The position numbers were made by a program, and so were the translations under genes. A model generated the notes under the pieces. The model had not been told where the DNA came from. It was given only the letters and a program-made list of their open reading frames with translations, and searched no databases. Below are positions 4,584-38,530 of a DNA stretch of 64,000 bases, piece by piece (position 1 is the stretch's first letter; every line of letters starts with the position of its first letter). This DNA comes from Escherichia coli (GTDB taxonomy: Bacteria > Pseudomonadota > Gammaproteobacteria > Enterobacterales > Enterobacteriaceae), in NCBI RefSeq assembly GCF_046105845.1, contig NZ_CP151004.1; one strand, 5' to 3'.

Positions 4584-4659
4584 TCCTCTGTAGTTCAGTC
4601 GGTAGAACGGCGGACTGTTAATCCGTATGTCACTGGTTCGAGTCCAGTCAGAGGAGCCA
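4584..4659 (+). tRNA. asnW: tRNA-Asn (GUU)
   Basis: Exact match to the 76-nt tRNA-Asn on the + strand; inverted relative to asnU. Confidence 0.93.
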
Positions 4660-4720
4660 AATTTTAGTTTTGAGACATCTCTATAAGTCTCAAAACAGTT
4701 AAAAAATAAAAATTATTTTT

Positions 4721-4756
4721 ACCCGGTTACTTGTAAAAAAGTTACCGGGTTTTTTG
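4721..4756 (+). terminator. Rho-independent terminator downstream of asnW and yeeO
   Basis: Imperfect inverted repeat acccggttac/gttaccgggt followed by a T-run. Confidence 0.55.
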
Positions 4757-5112
4757 ATTTCTGTGTTTCGTGCGCTTAATCGAGTCTCACGCTTCAGTGA
4801 GCAAATTGCCCCTCCCCAACAGACATCACGATTCGCAAGGTCAAAAACTCTGTTCCATGAAGTACCGTACAAAGATAAAGAGAAAAATGCCTTATGCGGG
4901 ATGTCGCTATCGCGTCTTTATCGGGAAACTATGCGTAATTGCCACTTTGCCTTCTGTAATCAGAAAAAGAAGAACTGGAATTTTAATAAATATTATTTCT
5001 CTGGGAATGGGTTTTTTTTATAATCAATATGACGAGTTGAACATTATATTTTTATAATGATTATATGAGATTAAAGAAATCTGCCATAAAGACAGATTTC
5101 TTTAAAATATAA

Positions 5113-5829
5113 TTAGAGATTTGCGACGTTATGATAAACTTTTTGTACATCGTCGTCATCTTCAAGGGCATCAACAAGCCCTTCAAAGATTTCTAAATCT
5201 TCTGGGGAAAGCTCAACTTCAGATTGAGCAATCATTTCTAATTCTGTTGTTGAGAACTCAGTGATTCCAGCTGCTTTTAGAGCCGCGATTCCTTTATGAA
5301 GGTCAGTAGGTTCGGTATAAATAACAATGTTACCTTCTTCTTCAGTCACATCACGAACATCAACTTCAGCTTCAAGTAAAATTTCAAAAATATGGTCAGG
5401 GTCTGTTCCTTTAAATACAATCACACCCGTATTGTCAAACATATAGCTGACAGAACCTGCCGCTCCGATATTGCCGCCTTTTTTATTGAAAATTGTGCGA
5501 ACGTTAGCAATCGTACGGTTAACATTGGAAGTCAAGGTTTCAGCGATAATCATTGAGCCATTAGGACCAAAGCCTTCATAACGGCCCTGCACGAACGTTT
5601 CATCTCCGCCGCCTTTGGCTTTATCAATTGCTTTATCAATAACATGCTTTGGAACTTGTGCCTGCTTTGCTCGTTCAATAACGAATTTTAAAGATGTGTT
5701 TAATTCTGGATCGGGTTCACCTTGTTTGGCAGCGGCATAGATTTCTACACCGAATTTTGCATAAATTTTAGACGTCGCACCGTCTTTAGCCGTTTTTTTA
5801 GCAACAATATTGGCCCATTTACGTCCCAC
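5113..5829 (-). CDS. yeeN: YebC/PmpR-family transcriptional regulator paralog YeeN (238 aa)
   Basis: ORF with N-terminus [27 protein letters not shown] typical of the YebC family; position between asnW and amn. Confidence 0.85.
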
Positions 5830-6171
5830 TGGAATGATCTCCTCGAAAATTTATTTACATTACTGGTAAATCGTTAACATGTGTTAGTTCGGCATATTAT
5901 ATCATAACAGGAAAAATCTCGTCTATTAGAAATAAAAATATTCTAAAGCCATAATATTATATTTAATCTCATAAAAACTAATGTTGTTGGCGGATTTTTT
6001 TATAATTCTTTTTTGAAAGCATACTTGCTTTTAATATGTGGAAATCATTAAGACGATAATAAAACTCGTATCCGCCCAAGGAAGCAAACAGCCCGCGTTT
6101 ATTGCGGGCTATTTGCCAGATGTCTTACTTAATCCTTCACATCTATTTTTGATAAGAAGGTTCAGAACTTA

Positions 6172-7626
6172 TTATCGGAACGGCGGCTCATTAAAGGTTC
6201 GTAATTTACGTGAATGCAGTCGGTCGCCTTCTGCGCGCAGCAAATCGATCGCCCGAATGCCAATTTGCAGGTGTTCGGAAATAGCGCCTTCATAAAAACG
6301 GTTAGCCTGACCGGGAAGTTTAATCTCACCATGCAACGGTTTATCTGAAACACACAGTAGTGTCCCGTATGGCACGCGGAAACGATATCCTTGCGCAGCG
6401 ATGGTTGCACTTTCCATATCAATTGCTACGGCCCGGCTTAAGTTAAAACGAAGTGCAGAAGCTGAGTAACGTAATTCCCAATTCCTGTCATCTGTGGTTA
6501 CCACAGTGCCAGTACGTAGCCGCTGTTTAACTTCCTCACCGGGCCTGCCGCTGACTAACTTGGTAGCGTCATAAAGCGCACGTTGCACTTCAGCAATGCT
6601 CGGAATAGGAATATCGGGCGGCAGTACCGCATCAAGAACGTGGTCATCGCGTAAATAAGCGTGTGCAAGTACATAATCTCCAATGGCCTGGCTTTCACGT
6701 AAGCCACCACAGTGACCAATCATCAACCAGACATCCGGGCGTAGCACCGCCAGATGATCGCAGATGGTTTTTGCATTTGACGGTCCCACGCCAATATTCA
6801 CCAGAGTAATACCCTGACCATCGACGGTAATTAAATGCCATGCTGGCATCTGGTGTTTTTTCCATGCAAGGTCGGAAATGGCTTCTTCTGGCGCTTCGGT
6901 TTCGGCGGTGATCCAGTTCCCGCCAGCACAAGAAAGGGCAATGTAGGGACTATCAGGGTCGAGGATCTGGCTGCATCCCCAACGAACGAATTCATCCACA
7001 TAACGTGTGTAGTTGGTAAACAAGACGAACGGCTGAAAATGTTCAACTGGCGTACCGGTATAATGGCGCAACCGCGCGAGGGAAAAATCGACGCGGCGCG
7101 CATCAAAATGCGATAGCGGGGAGAATTCCGTTGGATGATAAATGCCGTCTGCAGTTTCATCGCCAATTTGCGCCAGTTCTGTTGTCGGGAAGTAGCGAGT
7201 TAGCCCAGCGCTCATTGAGCGATCAAGTGTCAATTCAGAGCCATCGATGACATAAGGATAAGGGATTTCATGCTGCGAGGGTTGCATCGAGATATGCGCA
7301 CCATAATCCTGATACAGCAACGTAAGTTGTTCATTGAGATACGAACGAAAGAGAGTAGGGCGAGTAATCGTGGTGGTGTAGCTGCCTGCGTGGGTAAAAC
7401 GACCAAATGCGCGCGTTTTGGGGGGATTGGTTGTGCTACCGTCCCAGGTTACGGTCAGTGATGGATAGACAAAAAGACCTTGTTTGCGGGCGTTTTCATC
7501 AGGTAATTCGCCACTTGTAATATATTTGCCAATGGCGTTGCGTAAAGCGACTACAGATTGCTCATACAGCGCGTCGAGTTTATCCAGTGCCTGAGCTGGG
7601 GTCAGACCGGAGCCCTTATTATTCAT
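6172..7626 (-). CDS. amn: AMP nucleosidase (484 aa)
   Basis: ORF 6172..7731 recognised as Amn; start placed at the ATG giving MNNKGSGLTPAQALDKL with an AGGAG upstream; the longer ORF is an N-terminal artefact. Confidence 0.88.
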   Translation of the reverse strand: MNNKGSGLTPAQALDKLDALYEQSVVALRNAIGKYITSGELPDENARKQGLFVYPSLTVTWDGSTTNPPKTRAFGRFTHAGSYTTTITRPTLFRSYLNEQLTLLYQDYGAHISMQPSQHEIPYPYVIDGSELTLDRSMSAGLTRYFPTTELAQIGDETADGIYHPTEFSPLSHFDARRVDFSLARLRHYTGTPVEHFQPFVLFTNYTRYVDEFVRWGCSQILDPDSPYIALSCAGGNWITAETEAPEEAISDLAWKKHQMPAWHLITVDGQGITLVNIGVGPSNAKTICDHLAVLRPDVWLMIGHCGGLRESQAIGDYVLAHAYLRDDHVLDAVLPPDIPIPSIAEVQRALYDATKLVSGRPGEEVKQRLRTGTVVTTDDRNWELRYSASALRFNLSRAVAIDMESATIAAQGYRFRVPYGTLLCVSDKPLHGEIKLPGQANRFYEGAISEHLQIGIRAIDLLRAEGDRLHSRKLRTFNEPPFR

Positions 7627-7727
7627 GTGTGTCTCCTGTTCCATACAATTACCGCACATCCGATAGTATGTCACAGAAATGTGAAACAAAAGTGTAAGGC
7701 GAAGATCGGATGATCTTCGCCAGACTA

Positions 7728-9044
7728 TCAAGCGCGTTGATTATCTTTCATCAACAAAGCGGTCATTGCGGAAATCAGGCATCCAGCCAGCAAATAAATG
7801 GCGACGCTATGCCAGTTCCCGGCAAAGTAAGTGATGAGTGCAGCGGCAATAAAAGGTGTAAATCCACCGCCAACCACACTGGCAACCTGATAACCGACTC
7901 CAGCGCCACTATAGCGATAACTGGCACCAAACATTTCGGTAAACATCGGTTGTTGCACACACACCACCATGTCATGCGCAATGTTTGCCAGCATTATGGA
8001 GAAGAAAACTATCCAGAAAATAGATTGTGCTTCAAGCGCCATAAAGAAAGGAAATGCGCTCAACGTTCCGATTAACGCACCTGTGATATAAACCCTGCGG
8101 CGACCAAAACGATCGGCAAGCCAGGCAAAACAGGGAATTGTCAGGCAGCTTAATCCACCTACCAGCAAACCAATATTGAGGAAAAGTTCGCGCGGTAACC
8201 CCATATTCTGGGTTGAATAATTAAGTGCGAAGGCGGTAACGATGTACATCGTCAGCAACTCGCACAGTCGTAGCGCAATAATCTTCAGGAAAGCACCAGG
8301 ATGCCGTAATAGTGCTTCGATAACCGGAATGCGTTTTTTCGCGGCCGCTTGATTATGTTGCTGTTGTTCGAATTCCGCGGACTCCTCCATGCCATTGCGC
8401 ACCCACAATGCTCCCAGTACCAGTACGATGCTAAACAGGAAAGGAATGCGCCAGCCCCAGCTTAAAAACTGTTCGTCAGTCGTCATCATACTGATCAATG
8501 AAACCAGTCCGGTTGAAAGCAGTAAACCTACACCGTAGCCAACTTGTACACCGCTACTATAAAAGGCTTTTTTATTTTTCGGCGCACTTTCAACGGAAAG
8601 TAACGCCGCGCCTCCCCATTCGCCGCCGACGGCAAATCCCTGTATGGCACGCAGCGTCACCAGTAAAATGGGGGCCCACCACCCAATGGTCGAGAAGGAA
8701 GGAAGAATACCAATCAAGGCTGTCGCGATGCCCATCATCCAGACGGTCAGCATTAACATGCGTTTACGTCCCAGTCGGTCGCCAAAGTGACCGAAAATGA
8801 CACCGCCGAGCGGACGGAACAGGAATCCGACACCAAAGGTGGCAAATGCGGCGAGCGTTCCCATAGCCGGGCTTACTTGCGGGAAAAACTCGCGATTAAA
8901 CACCAGTGCGGCGGTAATGCCATAGAGTAAAAAATCATACCAGTCGACGACGGCACCGGCAAAACTGCCTAACGCAGCTCGTCGGGCGCGACTTAACGAA
9001 AGCGTCCCTTCATCGGGACGAGTGGAGATGAGCGTGGAGTCCAT
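7728..9044 (-). CDS. shiA: MFS shikimate/H+ symporter ShiA (438 aa)
   Basis: 438-aa multi-pass membrane ORF with MFS sugar-transporter motifs; position between amn and yeeL. Confidence 0.88.
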   Translation of the reverse strand: MDSTLISTRPDEGTLSLSRARRAALGSFAGAVVDWYDFLLYGITAALVFNREFFPQVSPAMGTLAAFATFGVGFLFRPLGGVIFGHFGDRLGRKRMLMLTVWMMGIATALIGILPSFSTIGWWAPILLVTLRAIQGFAVGGEWGGAALLSVESAPKNKKAFYSSGVQVGYGVGLLLSTGLVSLISMMTTDEQFLSWGWRIPFLFSIVLVLGALWVRNGMEESAEFEQQQHNQAAAKKRIPVIEALLRHPGAFLKIIALRLCELLTMYIVTAFALNYSTQNMGLPRELFLNIGLLVGGLSCLTIPCFAWLADRFGRRRVYITGALIGTLSAFPFFMALEAQSIFWIVFFSIMLANIAHDMVVCVQQPMFTEMFGASYRYSGAGVGYQVASVVGGGFTPFIAAALITYFAGNWHSVAIYLLAGCLISAMTALLMKDNQRA

Positions 9045-9358
9045 AATGATCCTGTTTGTACTGTCTTTTTATAATTAGTATGGAAAAGGTAACTCACATT
9101 GCCGTCGATCTATAAACGAACCTTATGAGACTACCTCGACAGAGCGCATCTGCAAATGATTTTATGGCTGATGAGCAACAACACGAAAAATTCGCTGGAA
9201 GATGAAAGCGCAGGAGTTGCTGGTGTTGTTTAAGGATTAAGCAGAGGCCCCACAGGTTCGAGATATGAAACATAAAAGTCCGCATATGTACAAAATAGCA
9301 CCCTGATGAGTCTGATAGACTGCATTGCATTATAACCAGTAGGGAGGCGAGGTTAGGT

Positions 9359-10411
9359 ATGTTTTTAGCATCATTGTTGAGACGTATTGCATTTAGTTAC
9401 TACGATTATAAAGCTAATAATTTCAATATTGGAAAAACAGACTTTGTTGTCATCCATATTCCCGATCAAATTGGCGATGCTATGGCCATCTTTCCAGTTA
9501 TTCGGGCGATTGAAATGCATAAAATAAAGCATCTTTTAATTGTTACTTCGACTATTAATTTAGAAGTCTTTAATGCGCTCAAACTTGAACAGACTAAATT
9601 AACATTAGTCACAATGACTATGCAGGATCACGCAACATTAAAAGAAATAAAAGATTTAGCGAAGAACATAACACAGCAATACGGTACGCCGGATCTTTGT
9701 ATAGAGGCGATGCGTAAAAAGAACCTGAAAACGATGTTATTTATCAGTCAGTTGAAAGCAAAAACGAATTTTCAGGTTGTCGGTTTAACCATGAAGTGCT
9801 ATTCCCCTTTGTGTAAGAACGCGTCCCGGATGGATCAGAATCTCAGGGCTCCCGTACCCATGACATGGGCGTTTATGATGCGTGAAGCGGGTTTTCCTGC
9901 AGTCAGGCCAATATATGAATTGCCATTAAGCGAGGATGTACTCGATGAGGTGCGCGAGGAAATGCGATCGTTAGGATCTTACATTGCGCTTAATTTAGAA
10001 GGTAGCTCGCAGGAGCGTACATTTTCATTATCGATTGCAGAAAATCTAATAGCAAAAATTCAAAGTGAAACAGATATACCAATAGTGATCGTTCATGGAC
10101 CCAAAGGGGAAGATAAAGCCAGGGAACTAGTGAATAGTTATAATAATGTCTACCGTTTATCCTTGTCACCCTCGATTAAACGTTCAGCAGCAATCATAAA
10201 AGATGCTTATATCGCAATAACACCTGACACCTCAATATTACATATGGCAAGTGCCTATAATACCCCCGTTGTTGCAATTTATGCTGATTACAAAACGCGA
10301 TGGCCCGCAATGGCCGATGTCTCGGAGTCAGTCGTCGTTGGGCAAAAAATTGACAATATAAGTCTGGATGAATTCGCAAAGGCATTAAAAAGTGTTTTGG
10401 CGAGAATTTGA
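9359..10411 (+). CDS. yeeL: Glycosyltransferase family 9 (ADP-heptose:LPS heptosyltransferase-like) protein, intact 350 aa; I recall this locus as a pseudogene in K-12
   Basis: Uninterrupted 350-aa ORF with ATG at 9359 and AGGGAGG upstream; C-terminal region has GT9-like character; visibly AT-rich. Confidence 0.65.
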   Translation: MFLASLLRRIAFSYYDYKANNFNIGKTDFVVIHIPDQIGDAMAIFPVIRAIEMHKIKHLLIVTSTINLEVFNALKLEQTKLTLVTMTMQDHATLKEIKDLAKNITQQYGTPDLCIEAMRKKNLKTMLFISQLKAKTNFQVVGLTMKCYSPLCKNASRMDQNLRAPVPMTWAFMMREAGFPAVRPIYELPLSEDVLDEVREEMRSLGSYIALNLEGSSQERTFSLSIAENLIAKIQSETDIPIVIVHGPKGEDKARELVNSYNNVYRLSLSPSIKRSAAIIKDAYIAITPDTSILHMASAYNTPVVAIYADYKTRWPAMADVSESVVVGQKIDNISLDEFAKALKSVLARI

Positions 10412-10982
10412 GGCAGTACTTATGCATAGTAATGCCGATCTGTTATGAACGGTAGTGTCATCAATGCTCTGAGGCTGGTCAATCATCACAGAAAACCAGC
10501 CTTTGGATCAAAGCAGTACTCACCGAAAATGCTCATAGTCACACCGAACGCGATTCAGGTGGAACTAAAACATTCACCATCATAAATAAGACAGCCTGAA
10601 CTTAAATCCCCGTTAACAGGCATACATTATAATGAGTGGTACTGATGTAATTTGTAATATTGAAATATGAACTGATATTGTTTGTTCGTCCTGACATATC
10701 TTCCTCCTTGATGTAATTAGCTAAACATTAACGTAATTTGACTGCATAGCAACAATGATAGCTATCAATAATAGCTCATGTACTTCGTTTCCCGCTGGCG
10801 TGGAACAGGTGGTTATACCATGTGTGAAAGCGTTTATTAAAAAAGAAAGGAGGCTCGACTATCTTCAGACTAACAGGGATGTATGGGAAAATGCAGGTAT
10901 ATTAATGGAGCGTTTGACAGCAAACGAATGTAAAAGTAGAGCGCCCCGAATGGAGCACTCTGTAAGAAAATATAGCGAAAAA

Positions 10983-19595
<8,613 letters not shown>

Positions 19596-19907
19596 GCTTA
19601 CCTTCCCTGAACGAGCTAACATAAATGCGCCCTTTCTAGCACAGCGAAAAAATGTAAATCCTGATAGCAATATGATTGAAAATTAATAAATTTTCGTTAA
19701 GCAGTTTTGGGTGTGGGTTGCAAGAGGGGAGACTACTGAATTACTCAAGTTTTGTAATCGAGGGGAAAATGGTGATGGCGTTCATAGCAAAACGCCCTCA
19801 ACCATAAAGGTCGAGGGCGCTTAAGATGTCAAAAACCCGCTATCCGTTAAAAAGCAATGCTCAACTAAGGTCAGTGACATTGCGCTAAAAAGCGAATTTT
19901 TAGAATT

Positions 19908-19983
19908 TGGCTCCTCTGACTGGACTCGAACCAGTGACATACGGATTAACAGTCCGCCGTTCTACCGACTGAACTACAGAGGA
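19908..19983 (-). tRNA. asnT: tRNA-Asn (GUU)
   Basis: Exact reverse complement of the 76-nt tRNA-Asn; about 24 nt of its 5' flank are identical to the asnV 5' flank. Confidence 0.93.
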
Positions 19984-20974: not shown

Positions 20975-21064
20975 GGAGAGATGCCGGAGCGGCTGAACGG
21001 ACCGGTCTCGAAAACCGGAGTAGGGGCAACTCTACCGGGGGTTCAAATCCCCCTCTCTCCGCCA
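20975..21064 (+). tRNA. serU: tRNA-Ser (CGA)
   Basis: 90-nt sequence ggagagatgccggagcggctgaacgg...ctctctccgcca with long variable arm, CGA anticodon and CCA end; divergent from mtfA. Confidence 0.9.
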
Positions 21065-30018: not shown

Positions 30019-30110
30019 AAAAAAAGCCGGCATCATGCCGGCCCAAAAAATATAAACAAGACGATAAAAGGCTAATAACGGAGGCATCATGACACAGAAT
30101 AATAAAAAGG
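30019..30110 (-). ncRNA. rseX: Candidate small RNA, probably RseX, ending in a strong intrinsic terminator
   Basis: Minus-strand hairpin gccggcatgatgccggc followed by seven T's with no protein gene upstream on that strand; I recall RseX mapping to the yedR-yedS intergenic region; 5' end approximate. Confidence 0.4.
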
Positions 30111-30272: not shown

Positions 30273-30638
30273 GTGGAAAAATGTGACTTTTATCACATAA
30301 TAGTACTAAGTCTGAATTTTCCGGGTTATCTCAAAATGGAATACGGTTCGACAAAGATGGAAGAGAGACTCTCTCGCAGCCCTGGTGGCAAATTGGCTTT
30401 GTGGGCTTTCTATACATGGTGTGGCTATTTCGTCTGGGCAATGGCGCGTTACATCTGGGTGATGAGCCGGATCCCCGATGCCCCCGTGTCGGGATTTGAA
30501 AGCGATTTAGGCTCTACCGCGGGAAAGTGGTTAGGGGCACTGGTCGGCTTTTTATTTATGGCTCTGGTCGGGGCATTGTTAGGCAGCATTGCCTGGTACA
30601 CCCGACCTCGTCCCGCACGTAGCAGACGCTATGAATAA
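30273..30638 (+). CDS. yedR: Small inner-membrane protein YedR (121 aa if the GTG start is used)
   Basis: ORF 30255..30638 with two hydrophobic segments; start codon uncertain (TTG 30255, GTG 30273 or ATG 30336). Confidence 0.65.
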   Translation: MEKCDFYHIIVLSLNFPGYLKMEYGSTKMEERLSRSPGGKLALWAFYTWCGYFVWAMARYIWVMSRIPDAPVSGFESDLGSTAGKWLGALVGFLFMALVGALLGSIAWYTRPRPARSRRYE

Positions 30639-30677
30639 AAACTGCTAAGGTTGCGACTCTTTGGCAACGGAGCGCGT

Positions 30678-31373
30678 ATGGACTTACAACACTGGCAGGC
30701 ACAGTTCGAAAACTGGTTGAAAAACCATCATCAGCATCAGGACGCGGCCCATGACGTATGTCATTTTCGCCGCGTCTGGGCTACGGCACAGAAGCTGGCG
30801 GCAGATGACGATGTCGATATGCTGGTGATTTTAACCGCCTGTTATTTTCACGATATTGTGAGCCTGGCGAAAAATCATCCGCAACGGCAGCGTTCTTCAA
30901 TCCTGGCGGCAGAAGAGACGCGTCGCCTGCTCCGTGAAGAGTTCGTGCAATTTCCGGCGGAGAAAATTGAGGCCGTTTGTCATGCCATTGCCGCGCACAG
31001 TTTCAGCGCGCAAATCGCCCCCTTAACAACGGAAGCTAAAATCGTCCAGGATGCGGATCGGCTGGAAGCCCTGGGGGCGATTGGCCTGGCGCGCGTGTTT
31101 GCCGTTTCAGGGGCATTGGGCGTGGCGCTGTTTGATGGTGAAGATCCGTTCGCACAGCATCGCCCGCTTGATGATAAACGCTACGCGCTGGATCATTTCC
31201 AGACTAAGTTGCTGAAGCTACCGCAAACCATGCAAACCGCAAGAGGCAAGCAGCTGGCGCAGCACAACGCGCAATTTTTAGTCGAGTTTATGGCGAAGCT
31301 CAGTGCCGAACTGGCGGGGGAGAATGAAGGTGTCGATCACAAGGTGATAGATGCGTTTTCACCCGCGGGCTGA
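30678..31373 (+). CDS. yedJ: HD-domain phosphohydrolase YedJ (231 aa)
   Basis: HD motif (CYFHDIVS) and recognised N-terminus [14 protein letters not shown]. Confidence 0.85.
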
Positions 31374-31439
31374 GCGCGTGGCCCTAAATGGCTGTAATTA
31401 TGTTAACCTGTCGGCCATCTCAGATGGCCGGTTAAATCT

Positions 31440-32858
31440 ATGCAGGAAAATATATCAGTAACCGATTCATACAGCACCGGGAATGCCGCACAGGCAATGC
31501 TGGAGAAACTGCTGCAAATTTATGATGTTAAAACGCTGGTGGCGCAGCTTAATGGTGTGGGTGAGAATCACTGGAGCGCGGCAATTTTAAAACGTGCGCT
31601 GGCGAATGACTCGGCATGGCACCGTTTAAGTGAGAAAGAGTTCGCCCATCTGCAAACGTTGTTACCCAAACCACCGGCACATCATCCGCATTATGCGTTT
31701 CGCTTTATCGATCTATTTGCCGGAATTGGCGGCATCCGTCGCGGTTTTGAATCGATTGGCGGACAGTGCGTCTTTACCAGCGAATGGAACAAACATGCGG
31801 TACGCACTTATAAAGCCAACCATTATTGCGATCCGGCGACGCATCATTTTAATGAAGATATCCGCGACATCACCCTCAGCCATAAAGACGGCGTGAGTGA
31901 TGAGGCGGCAGCGGAACATATTCGTCAACACATTCCTGAACACGATGTATTACTGGCGGGTTTTCCTTGTCAGCCATTTTCGCTGGCTGGCGTATCGAAA
32001 AAGAACTCGCTCGGGCGGGCGCACGGTTTTGCCTGCGATACCCAGGGCACGCTGTTCTTTGATGTGGTGCGCATTATCGACGCGCGTCGTCCGGCGATGT
32101 TTGTGCTCGAAAACGTCAAAAACCTGAAAAGTCACGATAAAGGAAAAACGTTCCGCATCATCATGCAGACGCTGGACGAACTGGGCTATGACGTGGCTGA
32201 TGCAGAAGATAACGGGCCAGACGATCCGAAAATCATCGACGGCAAACATTTTCTGCCGCAGCACCGTGAACGCATCGTGCTGGTGGGTTTTCGTCGCGAT
32301 CTGAATCTGAAAGCCGATTTTACTCTGCGTGATATCAGCGAATGTTTCCCTGCGCAGCGAGTGACGCTGGCCCAGCTGCTGGACCCGATGGTCGAGGCGA
32401 AATATATCCTGACGCCGGTGCTGTGGAAGTACCTCTATCGTTATGCGAAAAAACATCAGGCACGCGGTAACGGCTTCGGTTATGGAATGGTTTATCCGAA
32501 CAATCCGCAAAGCGTCACGCGTACGCTGTCTGCGCGTTATTACAAAGATGGCGCGGAAATTTTAATCGATCGCGGTTGGGATATGGCCACGGGTGAGAAA
32601 GACTTTGACGATCCGCTGAATCAGCAACATCGTCCACGTCGGTTAACGCCTCGTGAATGTGCGCGCTTAATGGGTTTTGAAGCGCCGGGAGAAGCGAAAT
32701 TCCGCATTCCGGTTTCGGACACTCAGGCCTATCGCCAGTTCGGTAACTCGGTGGTCGTACCGGTCTTTGCAGCGGTGGCAAAACTGCTTGAGCCAAAAAT
32801 CAAACAGGCGGTGGCGTTGCGTCAGCAAGAGGCACAACATGGTCGACGTTCACGATAA
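31440..32858 (+). CDS. dcm: DNA-cytosine (C5) methyltransferase Dcm (472 aa)
   Basis: C5-MTase motifs [10 protein letters not shown] (motif I), GFPCQPFS (motif IV, catalytic Cys) and ENVKNL (motif VI). Confidence 0.92.
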
Positions 32859-33309
32859 GGCCACCCGCAGCAAAAATATGCGCGCGATTGCCACGCGTGA
32901 TACGGCGATTGAGAAGCGCCTCGCCAGTCTGTTAACCGGGCAGGGCCTGGCGTTTCGCGTTCAGGACGCCAGTCTGCCCGGACGCCCGGATTTTGTCGTT
33001 GATGAATATCGCTGCGTGATATTTACCCACGGCTGCTTCTGGCACCATCATCACTGCTATTTGTTTAAAGTGCCTGCGACTCGAACCGAGTTCTGGCTGG
33101 AGAAGATAGGTAAAAATGTTGAACGCGATCGCCGCGATATCAGTCGCTTGCAGGAGCTCGGCTGGCGCGTACTGATTGTCTGGGAGTGTGCGTTACGTGG
33201 GCGCGAGAAGCTGACGGATGAAGCGCTTAGCGAGCGTCTGGAAGAGTGGATCTGCGGCGAAGGTGCCAGCGCGCAGATCGACACGCAGGGGATTCATTTA
33301 CTCGCTTGA
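32839..33309 (+). CDS. vsr: Very-short-patch repair endonuclease Vsr (156 aa)
   Basis: Start [16 protein letters not shown] lies inside the dcm 3' end in another frame (20-bp overlap), the known dcm-vsr arrangement. Confidence 0.9.
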
Positions 33310-34218
33310 TGCGTCCTGAATAACGGGCGCAACTACGGGTTTTGCCGGGAAGAGATATTTTCCCAACGTGACCAGTACCACCGCGAAGACAATCACGCCG
33401 AGCGCCAGCCATTCAATCTTCGACAGCGTCTCTCCGCCCAGTCCCGTACCCAGCAAGACCGCGACCACCGGGTTAACGTAGGCGTAGCTGGTGGCGAGAG
33501 CCGGACTGACGTTGCGGATTAAATACATATAAGCGTTTATGGCGATAATCGAACCAAACAGCGCCAGATAGCCGACCGCAAGGAAGCCTGAAAGGGAAGG
33601 GAGCGCCGTCAGTTTTTCACCTGCAATCATCGACGCGATCATTAACACCACGCCTGCTGCCAGCATCTCAATCGCACCCGCCATCATCCCTACAGGTAAG
33701 GTAATGCGCGAGCCATAAACCGAGCCAAACGCCCAGCTAATCGAGCCGATTAAAATCAGAATCGCGCCCCACGGATTGCCGCTTAAATTTCCACCGCTAT
33801 TGAGCATGATGATTCCGGCAAGCCCAATGGCGATACCCACCCATTCCAGTTTGCGCGTTTTAATGCCAAACAGGCGGCTGAAGCACAGGGTAAAGAGGGG
33901 CACGGTTGCAACCACAACGGCGGCGATGCCGGAAGGAACATTTTGATGTTCGGCAACCGTCACCATGCCATTACCGACAGCCAGCAATAACAGGCCAATC
34001 AGCGCGGCATTGAGCAGCGGACGTAGCGGGGGAAGTTTGTGTCCGCGCAGTAGCAAAAATGCCAGCAATAAAATACCGGCTGCCAGGAATCGAACGCCCG
34101 CCATCATTAACGGAGGCCAGCTTTCCACGCCAATCCGAATGACAAAATAGGTTGAGCCCCAAATGATATACAACGCAAACAACGCGCCAAAAAGCGGTAA
34201 CAACTGGCGGAAACGCAT
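33298..34218 (-). CDS. yedA: EamA/DMT-family transporter YedA (306 aa)
   Basis: 306-aa ten-TM-like hydrophobic ORF recognised as YedA. Confidence 0.85.
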   Translation of the reverse strand: MRFRQLLPLFGALFALYIIWGSTYFVIRIGVESWPPLMMAGVRFLAAGILLLAFLLLRGHKLPPLRPLLNAALIGLLLLAVGNGMVTVAEHQNVPSGIAAVVVATVPLFTLCFSRLFGIKTRKLEWVGIAIGLAGIIMLNSGGNLSGNPWGAILILIGSISWAFGSVYGSRITLPVGMMAGAIEMLAAGVVLMIASMIAGEKLTALPSLSGFLAVGYLALFGSIIAINAYMYLIRNVSPALATSYAYVNPVVAVLLGTGLGGETLSKIEWLALGVIVFAVVLVTLGKYLFPAKPVVAPVIQDASSE

Positions 34219-38443: not shown

Positions 38444-38530
38444 AACACATCAGATTTCCTGGTGTAACGAATTTTTTAAGTGCTTCTTGCTTAAGCAAGT
38501 TTCATCCCGACCCCTCAGGGTCGGGATTTT
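38444..38530 (+). ncRNA. dsrA: DsrA small regulatory RNA (rpoS activator, hns antisilencer)
   Basis: Sequence aacacatcagatttcctggtgtaacgaattttttaagtgcttcttgcttaagcaagtttcatcccgacccctcagggtcgggattttttt matches DsrA as I recall it, including the terminator; lies between yedP and yodD. Confidence 0.85.

Follow-up and report, generated by a model that had tools for sequence, protein, structure and literature searches.

An intact dcm-vsr gene pair with the long-described 20-nt out-of-frame overlap in an Escherichia coli chromosome

The stretch of DNA analysed here, a window of 64,000 nt from a chromosome of Escherichia coli, very probably carries the canonical chromosomal dcm-vsr operon of this species, in which the gene of a DNA-cytosine methyltransferase is followed by that of the endonuclease starting the repair of T:G mismatches. 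The arrangement of both genes in the window is the long-described one, is intact, and is already known in every respect, so that the main value of the observation is correct annotation only. The original prediction had proposed a 20-bp out-of-frame overlap between the two genes at 32839-32858, and the reading of both open reading frames returned exactly these coordinates, with the vsr start placed within the last codons of dcm and in a different frame (Table 1). The overlap reads ATGGTCGACGTTCACGATAA, and the ATG at 32839-32841 opens a frame of 156 amino acids that ends at 33309. Since (32839-31440) mod 3 equals 1, vsr lies in the +1 frame relative to dcm.

Table 1. Features of the dcm-vsr junction and its surroundings, in positions of the window
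Feature	Position	Strand	Basis or remark
dcm, DNA-cytosine (C5) methyltransferase, 472 aa	31440..32858	+	ORF; Pfam and NCBIfam profiles
Shine-Dalgarno-like AAGAGG (GAGG-type) for vsr	32827..32832	+	6 nt before the ATG, in dcm codons Gln465-Glu466-Ala467
vsr, very-short-patch repair T:G mismatch endonuclease, 156 aa	32839..33309	+	ORF; Pfam and TIGR00632
dcm/vsr 20-nt overlap, vsr in +1 frame	32839..32858	+	ORFs and K-12 alignment
Sole difference from K-12 within the overlap	32843	+	T here, C in K-12
dcm stop TAA, made by Vsr codons Asp6-Lys7 (GAT AAG)	32856..32858	+	Sequence reading, species alignment
yedA	33298-34218	-	Convergent; 3' end shares 12 nt (33298-33309) with the vsr 3' end

The identity of the two genes is supported by profile searches, motifs and structures. 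Dcm matches the Pfam family DNA_methylase (PF00145) with an E-value of 2.6e-77 and 260.9 bits (cut-off 22), as well as the Pfam family DNA_meth_N, and the NCBIfam model PRK10458, 'DNA cytosine methylase', covers residues 1-469 with 952 bits (cut-off 710). The methylase domain of Pfam extends to residue 448, well short of the overlap, and the translation displays the motifs of C5-methylases: I (DLFAGIGG), IV (GFPCQPFS, with the catalytic Cys), VI (ENV), VIII (QHRER) and X (GNSV). The PDB entry 3ME5 is near-identical to this protein, with a match over its full length. Vsr, in turn, matches PF03852 over residues 3-74 (1.7e-39, 133.9 bits, cut-off 27) and TIGR00632 over residues 1-118 (182 bits, cut-off 97.85), and it equals the protein chain of the E. 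coli Vsr-DNA complex 1CW0 at residues 3-156 except for Ser131, which is Thr in 1CW0. What we take to be the key residues of the E. coli enzyme, namely the catalytic Asp51, His64 and His69, the Zn-binding Cys66, His71, Cys73 and Cys117, and the intercalating Phe67, Trp68 and Trp86, are all kept in the window Vsr when aligned to 1CW0. The arrangement had been described as intact, and both reading frames are indeed real genes, their profile matches lying above the curated cut-offs. From the identity of 470 of 472 residues with K-12 Dcm, we infer that the specificity of the methylase would be CCWGG; likewise, the 98.7% amino acid identity to K-12 Vsr points to an endonuclease that would nick 5' of the T in the CTWGG/CCWGG T:G mismatch, the lesion to which deamination of 5-methylcytosine gives rise. 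A strain with this intact pair of methylase and repair enzyme should be Dcm+ Vsr+, a state for which methylation of CCWGG and protection against C-to-T hot spots at these sites are predicted.

The closest reference for the window is the dcm-vsr operon of K-12 (b1961-b1960), described by Sohail et al. (1990) and Dar and Bhagwat (1993). In MG1655, vsr occupies 2030448..2030918 and dcm 2030899..2032317, both on the minus strand, which amounts to the identical 20-nt overlap in the +1 frame, and realignment in search of another frame relationship left this relation unchanged. Like the window, K-12 has the order drpB-yedJ-dcm-vsr with a convergent yedA, drpB and yedJ thus flanking the pair upstream and yedA downstream in both; the lengths of dcm (1419 nt) and vsr (471 nt) and the Shine-Dalgarno sequence of vsr are also the same. 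Common to both is, moreover, the 12-nt convergent overlap of vsr and yedA (yedA end 2030459 and vsr end 2030448 in MG1655), vsr being overlapped at both of its ends, by dcm at the 5' and by yedA at the 3' end. In an ungapped comparison, dcm has 98.0% and vsr 97.2% nucleotide identity to K-12, leaving two amino acid differences in Dcm (D150E and K234Q) and two in Vsr (A2V and T131S). The claim that the overlap is conserved therefore stands for its geometry and for 19 of its 20 bases, but not for the remaining base at 32843, where GGT instead of GGC is silent in Dcm (Gly468) and GTC instead of GCC gives Vsr Val2 instead of Ala2.

These differences from K-12 are natural E. coli alleles, and the junction allele is a common one, as the 70-nt junction of the window, including the T at 32843, has an exact match in at least 1524 members of a collection of 5426 complete E. 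coli genomes that leaves out Shigella. The dcm-vsr locus was found in 5358 of these genomes; about 59 have no match to the region, and two matches lie on plasmids. The same overlapping pair is present in the RefSeq annotation of all the E. coli genomes inspected. The best identity of the window to the collection is 99.0% over 2.1 kb (31300-33400) and 98.8% over 24 kb (20000-44000), with full synteny, which makes this chromosome, of Escherichia/Shigella type, somewhat distant from the sampled E. coli genomes and has no bearing on the dcm-vsr finding. It may represent a Shigella or an Escherichia lineage that has been sampled only sparsely.

Other RNA genes were seen in the window. The small RNA genes rseX (30019-30108, minus strand, 99 bits) and DsrA (38444-38529, plus strand, 105 bits) are at the positions expected from the K-12 neighbourhood. 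Five tRNA genes, four tRNA-Asn(GUU) and one tRNA-Ser(CGA), are located at 352-427, 2760-2835, 4584-4659, 19908-19983 and 20975-21064, corresponding to the asnV/U/W/T and serU cluster. About 15 kb (4659-19908) separate the third from the fourth tRNA-Asn gene, and the latter, at 19908-19983 and asnT by position, is only about 1 kb from serU.

The description of this gene pair as translationally coupled, also part of the original prediction, is the accepted one and is taken here from the literature rather than from the sequence. According to it, one mRNA from a start upstream of dcm would carry both genes, and ribosomes would initiate vsr independently at the internal site, without a fusion protein being made. 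Efficient initiation of vsr would need ribosomes translating dcm up to the junction, and a cell making the mutagenic methylase would thereby also make the enzyme that repairs its damage. Dar and Bhagwat reportedly found in 1993 a single transcript, independent initiation at the internal ATG and no fusion protein, and in the same work efficient synthesis of Vsr is said to need the translation of dcm. The partial overlap of dcm and vsr (PMC4444293) and their organization in one operon (PMC4924334, PMC12907096) have also been described. The passage of PMC4444293 that cites Dar & Bhagwat 1993 states that dcm-6, a nonsense mutation at codon 45 (Trp45-stop), abolishes vsr activity as well, an effect that fits coupling and transcriptional polarity, which could be Rho-dependent, equally well. 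VSP repair is reported to take place mainly in stationary phase, in the passage of PMC2715241 that cites Macintyre et al. 1999; the link between Dcm and Vsr is thus not stoichiometric, and their expression is not simply locked together. In the window, a consensus scan, which sees near-consensus sites only, returned no sigma-70-like site on the plus strand of 30301-34139, including the interior of dcm, which leaves vsr without an obvious promoter of its own. A ribosome terminating at the dcm stop halts 17 nt past the vsr ATG, so that a simple termination-reinitiation mechanism would require scanning backwards.

The junction was also compared beyond E. coli, in a survey where one genome per species was scanned with Vsr, resulting in 80 Enterobacteriaceae loci, most of which share the neighbourhood drpB-yedJ-dcm-vsr-yedA-yedI. 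Of the 80 loci, 49 possess the 20-nt overlap in the +1 frame and have either ATG or GTG as the homologous codon, and nine more have an altered overlap in the same frame, resulting from a shifted start or stop. Judged by the position of the stop, the altered overlaps measure 17 nt in five loci and 35 nt in one, while in four loci the geometry is that of 20 nt, the homologous codon is not a start codon, and a likely start lies one codon off (one of them being also a 17-nt case). Six loci, from Cedecea, Dryocola, Enterobacter sp. Ag1 and Cy-643, and Buttiauxella sp. B2, have instead a spacer of 10-12 or 35 nt with its own GGAG; five Buttiauxella loci (L041, L046, L049, L057 and L081) have dcm and vsr separated by an inserted gene, in a gap of about 0.9-1 kb; and in seven loci, from Kosakonia, Phytobacter or related bacteria, vsr comes directly after yedJ with no dcm. 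No Dcm homologue was seen upstream of vsr in three further loci, two lacking both yedJ and dcm within 2.5 kb and one with too little upstream sequence. Wherever a Dcm homologue ends next to vsr, the genes overlap in 58 of 64 loci. The dcm-vsr overlap is therefore widespread but dispensable, and not obligatory, because in several enterobacterial genera vsr persists although the overlap, or dcm itself, is missing.

Some of these loci deserve a separate description. In the Buttiauxella locus that was read (L041), the gap between dcm and vsr holds a minus-strand ORF of 172 amino acids (1685-2203) with a signal-peptide-like N-terminus, and the layout of the Buttiauxella gap is one of a broken overlap, with vsr left with its own AT-rich upstream region. 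The 'orphan' vsr loci (L033, L036, L040, L043, L060, L063 and L065) have vsr at 2501, behind a spacer of 10-20 nt after yedJ, and dcm is absent from the locus, which is otherwise syntenic. There are also loci in which dcm has been partly deleted, its 3' end being retained and still sharing the 20 nt with an intact vsr: those of Escherichia sp. MOD1-EC7003 (L006, 1717-2520), Klebsiella indica (L034, 2353-2520) and E. coli CM13 (L004, 2727-2798). The proteins flanking the pair in CM13 have the same RefSeq accessions as in K-12, and the Klebsiella indica locus, where only this dcm remnant still overlaps vsr, is counted among the 49.

What constrains the overlap can be read from an alignment of 60 junction sequences, made up of 58 species loci whose dcm overlaps vsr, together with K-12 and the window. 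Before the ATG, the third position of the dcm codons shows the greatest column entropy (1.40 versus 0.84 and 0.80). From the ATG onwards, the maximum lies at the third position of the vsr codons, both within the shared bases (0.91 versus 0.37 and 0.16) and downstream of them (1.09 versus 0.00 and 0.01). The variation inside the overlap follows the codon positions of Vsr, and the Dcm tail is therefore an unconstrained passenger; indeed, the 60 sequences include 38 different Dcm tails versus one dominant Vsr N-terminus. In relatives where Vsr codons 5-7 are spelled otherwise, the overlap is 17 or 35 nt long. The Shine-Dalgarno sequence of vsr is well kept in the same alignment, with columns 41-42 (G and A) at least 90% conserved and a G in column 43 of 52 of the 60 species junctions. 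On this basis, the overlap as a whole might be an evolutionary passenger, a reading that we put forward only tentatively: its length would be set by the spelling of Vsr codons 5-7, the last six residues of Dcm would drift, and the junction would have been dissolved several times with vsr being kept. The comparison further suggests that the selected feature may be the tight adjacency with an embedded ribosome-binding site, and not the 20 nt as such. If the overlap were such a passenger, Vsr would have a role independent of a neighbouring methylase, or its partner would be a CCWGG methylase encoded at another locus. This side result of the comparison refines a textbook example to a modest degree and is not a discovery.

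The coding overlap would not be a true one if Vsr started downstream at Met14, whose in-frame ATG is present at 32878-32880, and N-terminally truncated forms of the protein do fold and have been crystallised (1VSR from residue 21 and 1ODG from residue 23). However, residues 3-13 are conserved across the 60 species, with the variation falling on the third codon position, the TIGR00632 alignment begins with the very first residue, and the 155 aa of the full-length 1CW0 chain are the counterpart of residues 2-156 of the ORF, its residues 2-155 aligning to residues 3-156 of the window Vsr. These three observations effectively refute the Met14 start, to which we give next to no credence, and Vsr lacking its 14 N-terminal residues is referred to as a mutant (PMC2715241). 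Since the full-length 1CW0 chain begins at residue 2 of the ORF, the ATG inside dcm is the real start of vsr. In the opposite direction, a longer Vsr beginning with the TTG at 32677, which would give an ORF of 210 amino acids, was rejected as well, the variation upstream of 32839 following the codon positions of dcm. As to the product of the junction, the +1 relation between the frames would in principle allow ribosomes to shift within the overlap and to make a Dcm-Vsr fusion protein. This seems exceedingly improbable, given that 32839-32858 contains none of the recognised +1 shift sites (such as CUU UGA C), that vsr is provided with a Shine-Dalgarno sequence and an ATG of its own, and that relatives in which a spacer or an inserted gene separates dcm from vsr make Vsr separately; independent translation and the absence of the fusion were also reportedly established by Dar and Bhagwat in 1993.

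A more serious alternative is that the overlap is incidental and the genes are uncoupled, with vsr translated, and perhaps transcribed, independently, and the dcm frame simply meeting no stop until Vsr codons 6-7. Several of the comparative results agree with it: the tail of Dcm is free of constraint, the shared bases evolve in the frame of Vsr and number 17, 20 or 35 according to how the Vsr codons are spelled, the spacer loci of six species carry their own GGAG, a minus-strand gene lies between dcm and vsr in Buttiauxella, Kosakonia and Phytobacter have vsr directly behind yedJ without dcm, and vsr possesses its own Shine-Dalgarno sequence. Against it, translation of dcm is said by Dar and Bhagwat (1993) to be needed for efficient synthesis of Vsr, the overlap is kept in those 58 of the 64 loci where a Dcm homologue ends next to vsr, and the scan for near-consensus sigma-70 sites saw no promoter-like site inside dcm. 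In addition, the dcm-6 nonsense mutation lies about 1.27 kb upstream of vsr and, in the passage of PMC4444293 mentioned above, abolishes vsr activity. Taken together, these points make an incidental overlap of uncoupled genes unlikely, and coupled expression from one mRNA would be the preferred reading.

A structural route to this coupling was considered in the form of a hairpin that would mask the vsr start until ribosomes translating dcm opened it. The minimum free energy fold of 32780-32900 puts the Shine-Dalgarno sequence and the AUG inside a hairpin whose outer arms are GCGGUGGC (32808-32815) with GCCA-CCGC (32860-32868). The energy of this fold is unremarkable (MFE z = -1.13 versus shuffles), and the RNAalifold consensus of the 60 junctions lacks the helix. 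The positions of the hairpin pair in 64.2% of the cells, compared with 63.6% in shuffles, and changes on both sides occur in only 4 of its 20 pairs, where the mean of the shuffles is 4.3. A conserved hairpin masking the start of vsr was consequently rejected, and, being backed neither by folding nor by comparison, the structural route to coupling is without support.

The dcm-vsr junction can finally be set beside other known systems. Coupling at overlapping stop/start junctions (of the ATGA or TAATG type) is a generic feature of bacterial operons, and, as in the window, the upstream gene contains the downstream start and its ribosome-binding site, both genes being read from one mRNA; whereas these generic junctions usually overlap by 1 or 4 nt, the dcm-vsr overlap is longer, with 20 nt. 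Other pairs of a methylase and a Vsr protein follow the same logic, in which a 5mC-making enzyme is accompanied by a Vsr-family protein for T:G repair, examples being vsr and its C5-methylase in Neisseria, and ScmA and VsrA in Caulobacter (PMC12907096, PMC6116569). The vsr gene of Neisseria adjoins the C5-methylase gene, a 20-nt overlap not being described in that paper (PMC12907096), while the genes of ScmA and VsrA in Caulobacter are unlinked, unlike dcm and vsr (PMC12907096). The methylases of both these bacteria have recognition sequences other than that of Dcm.
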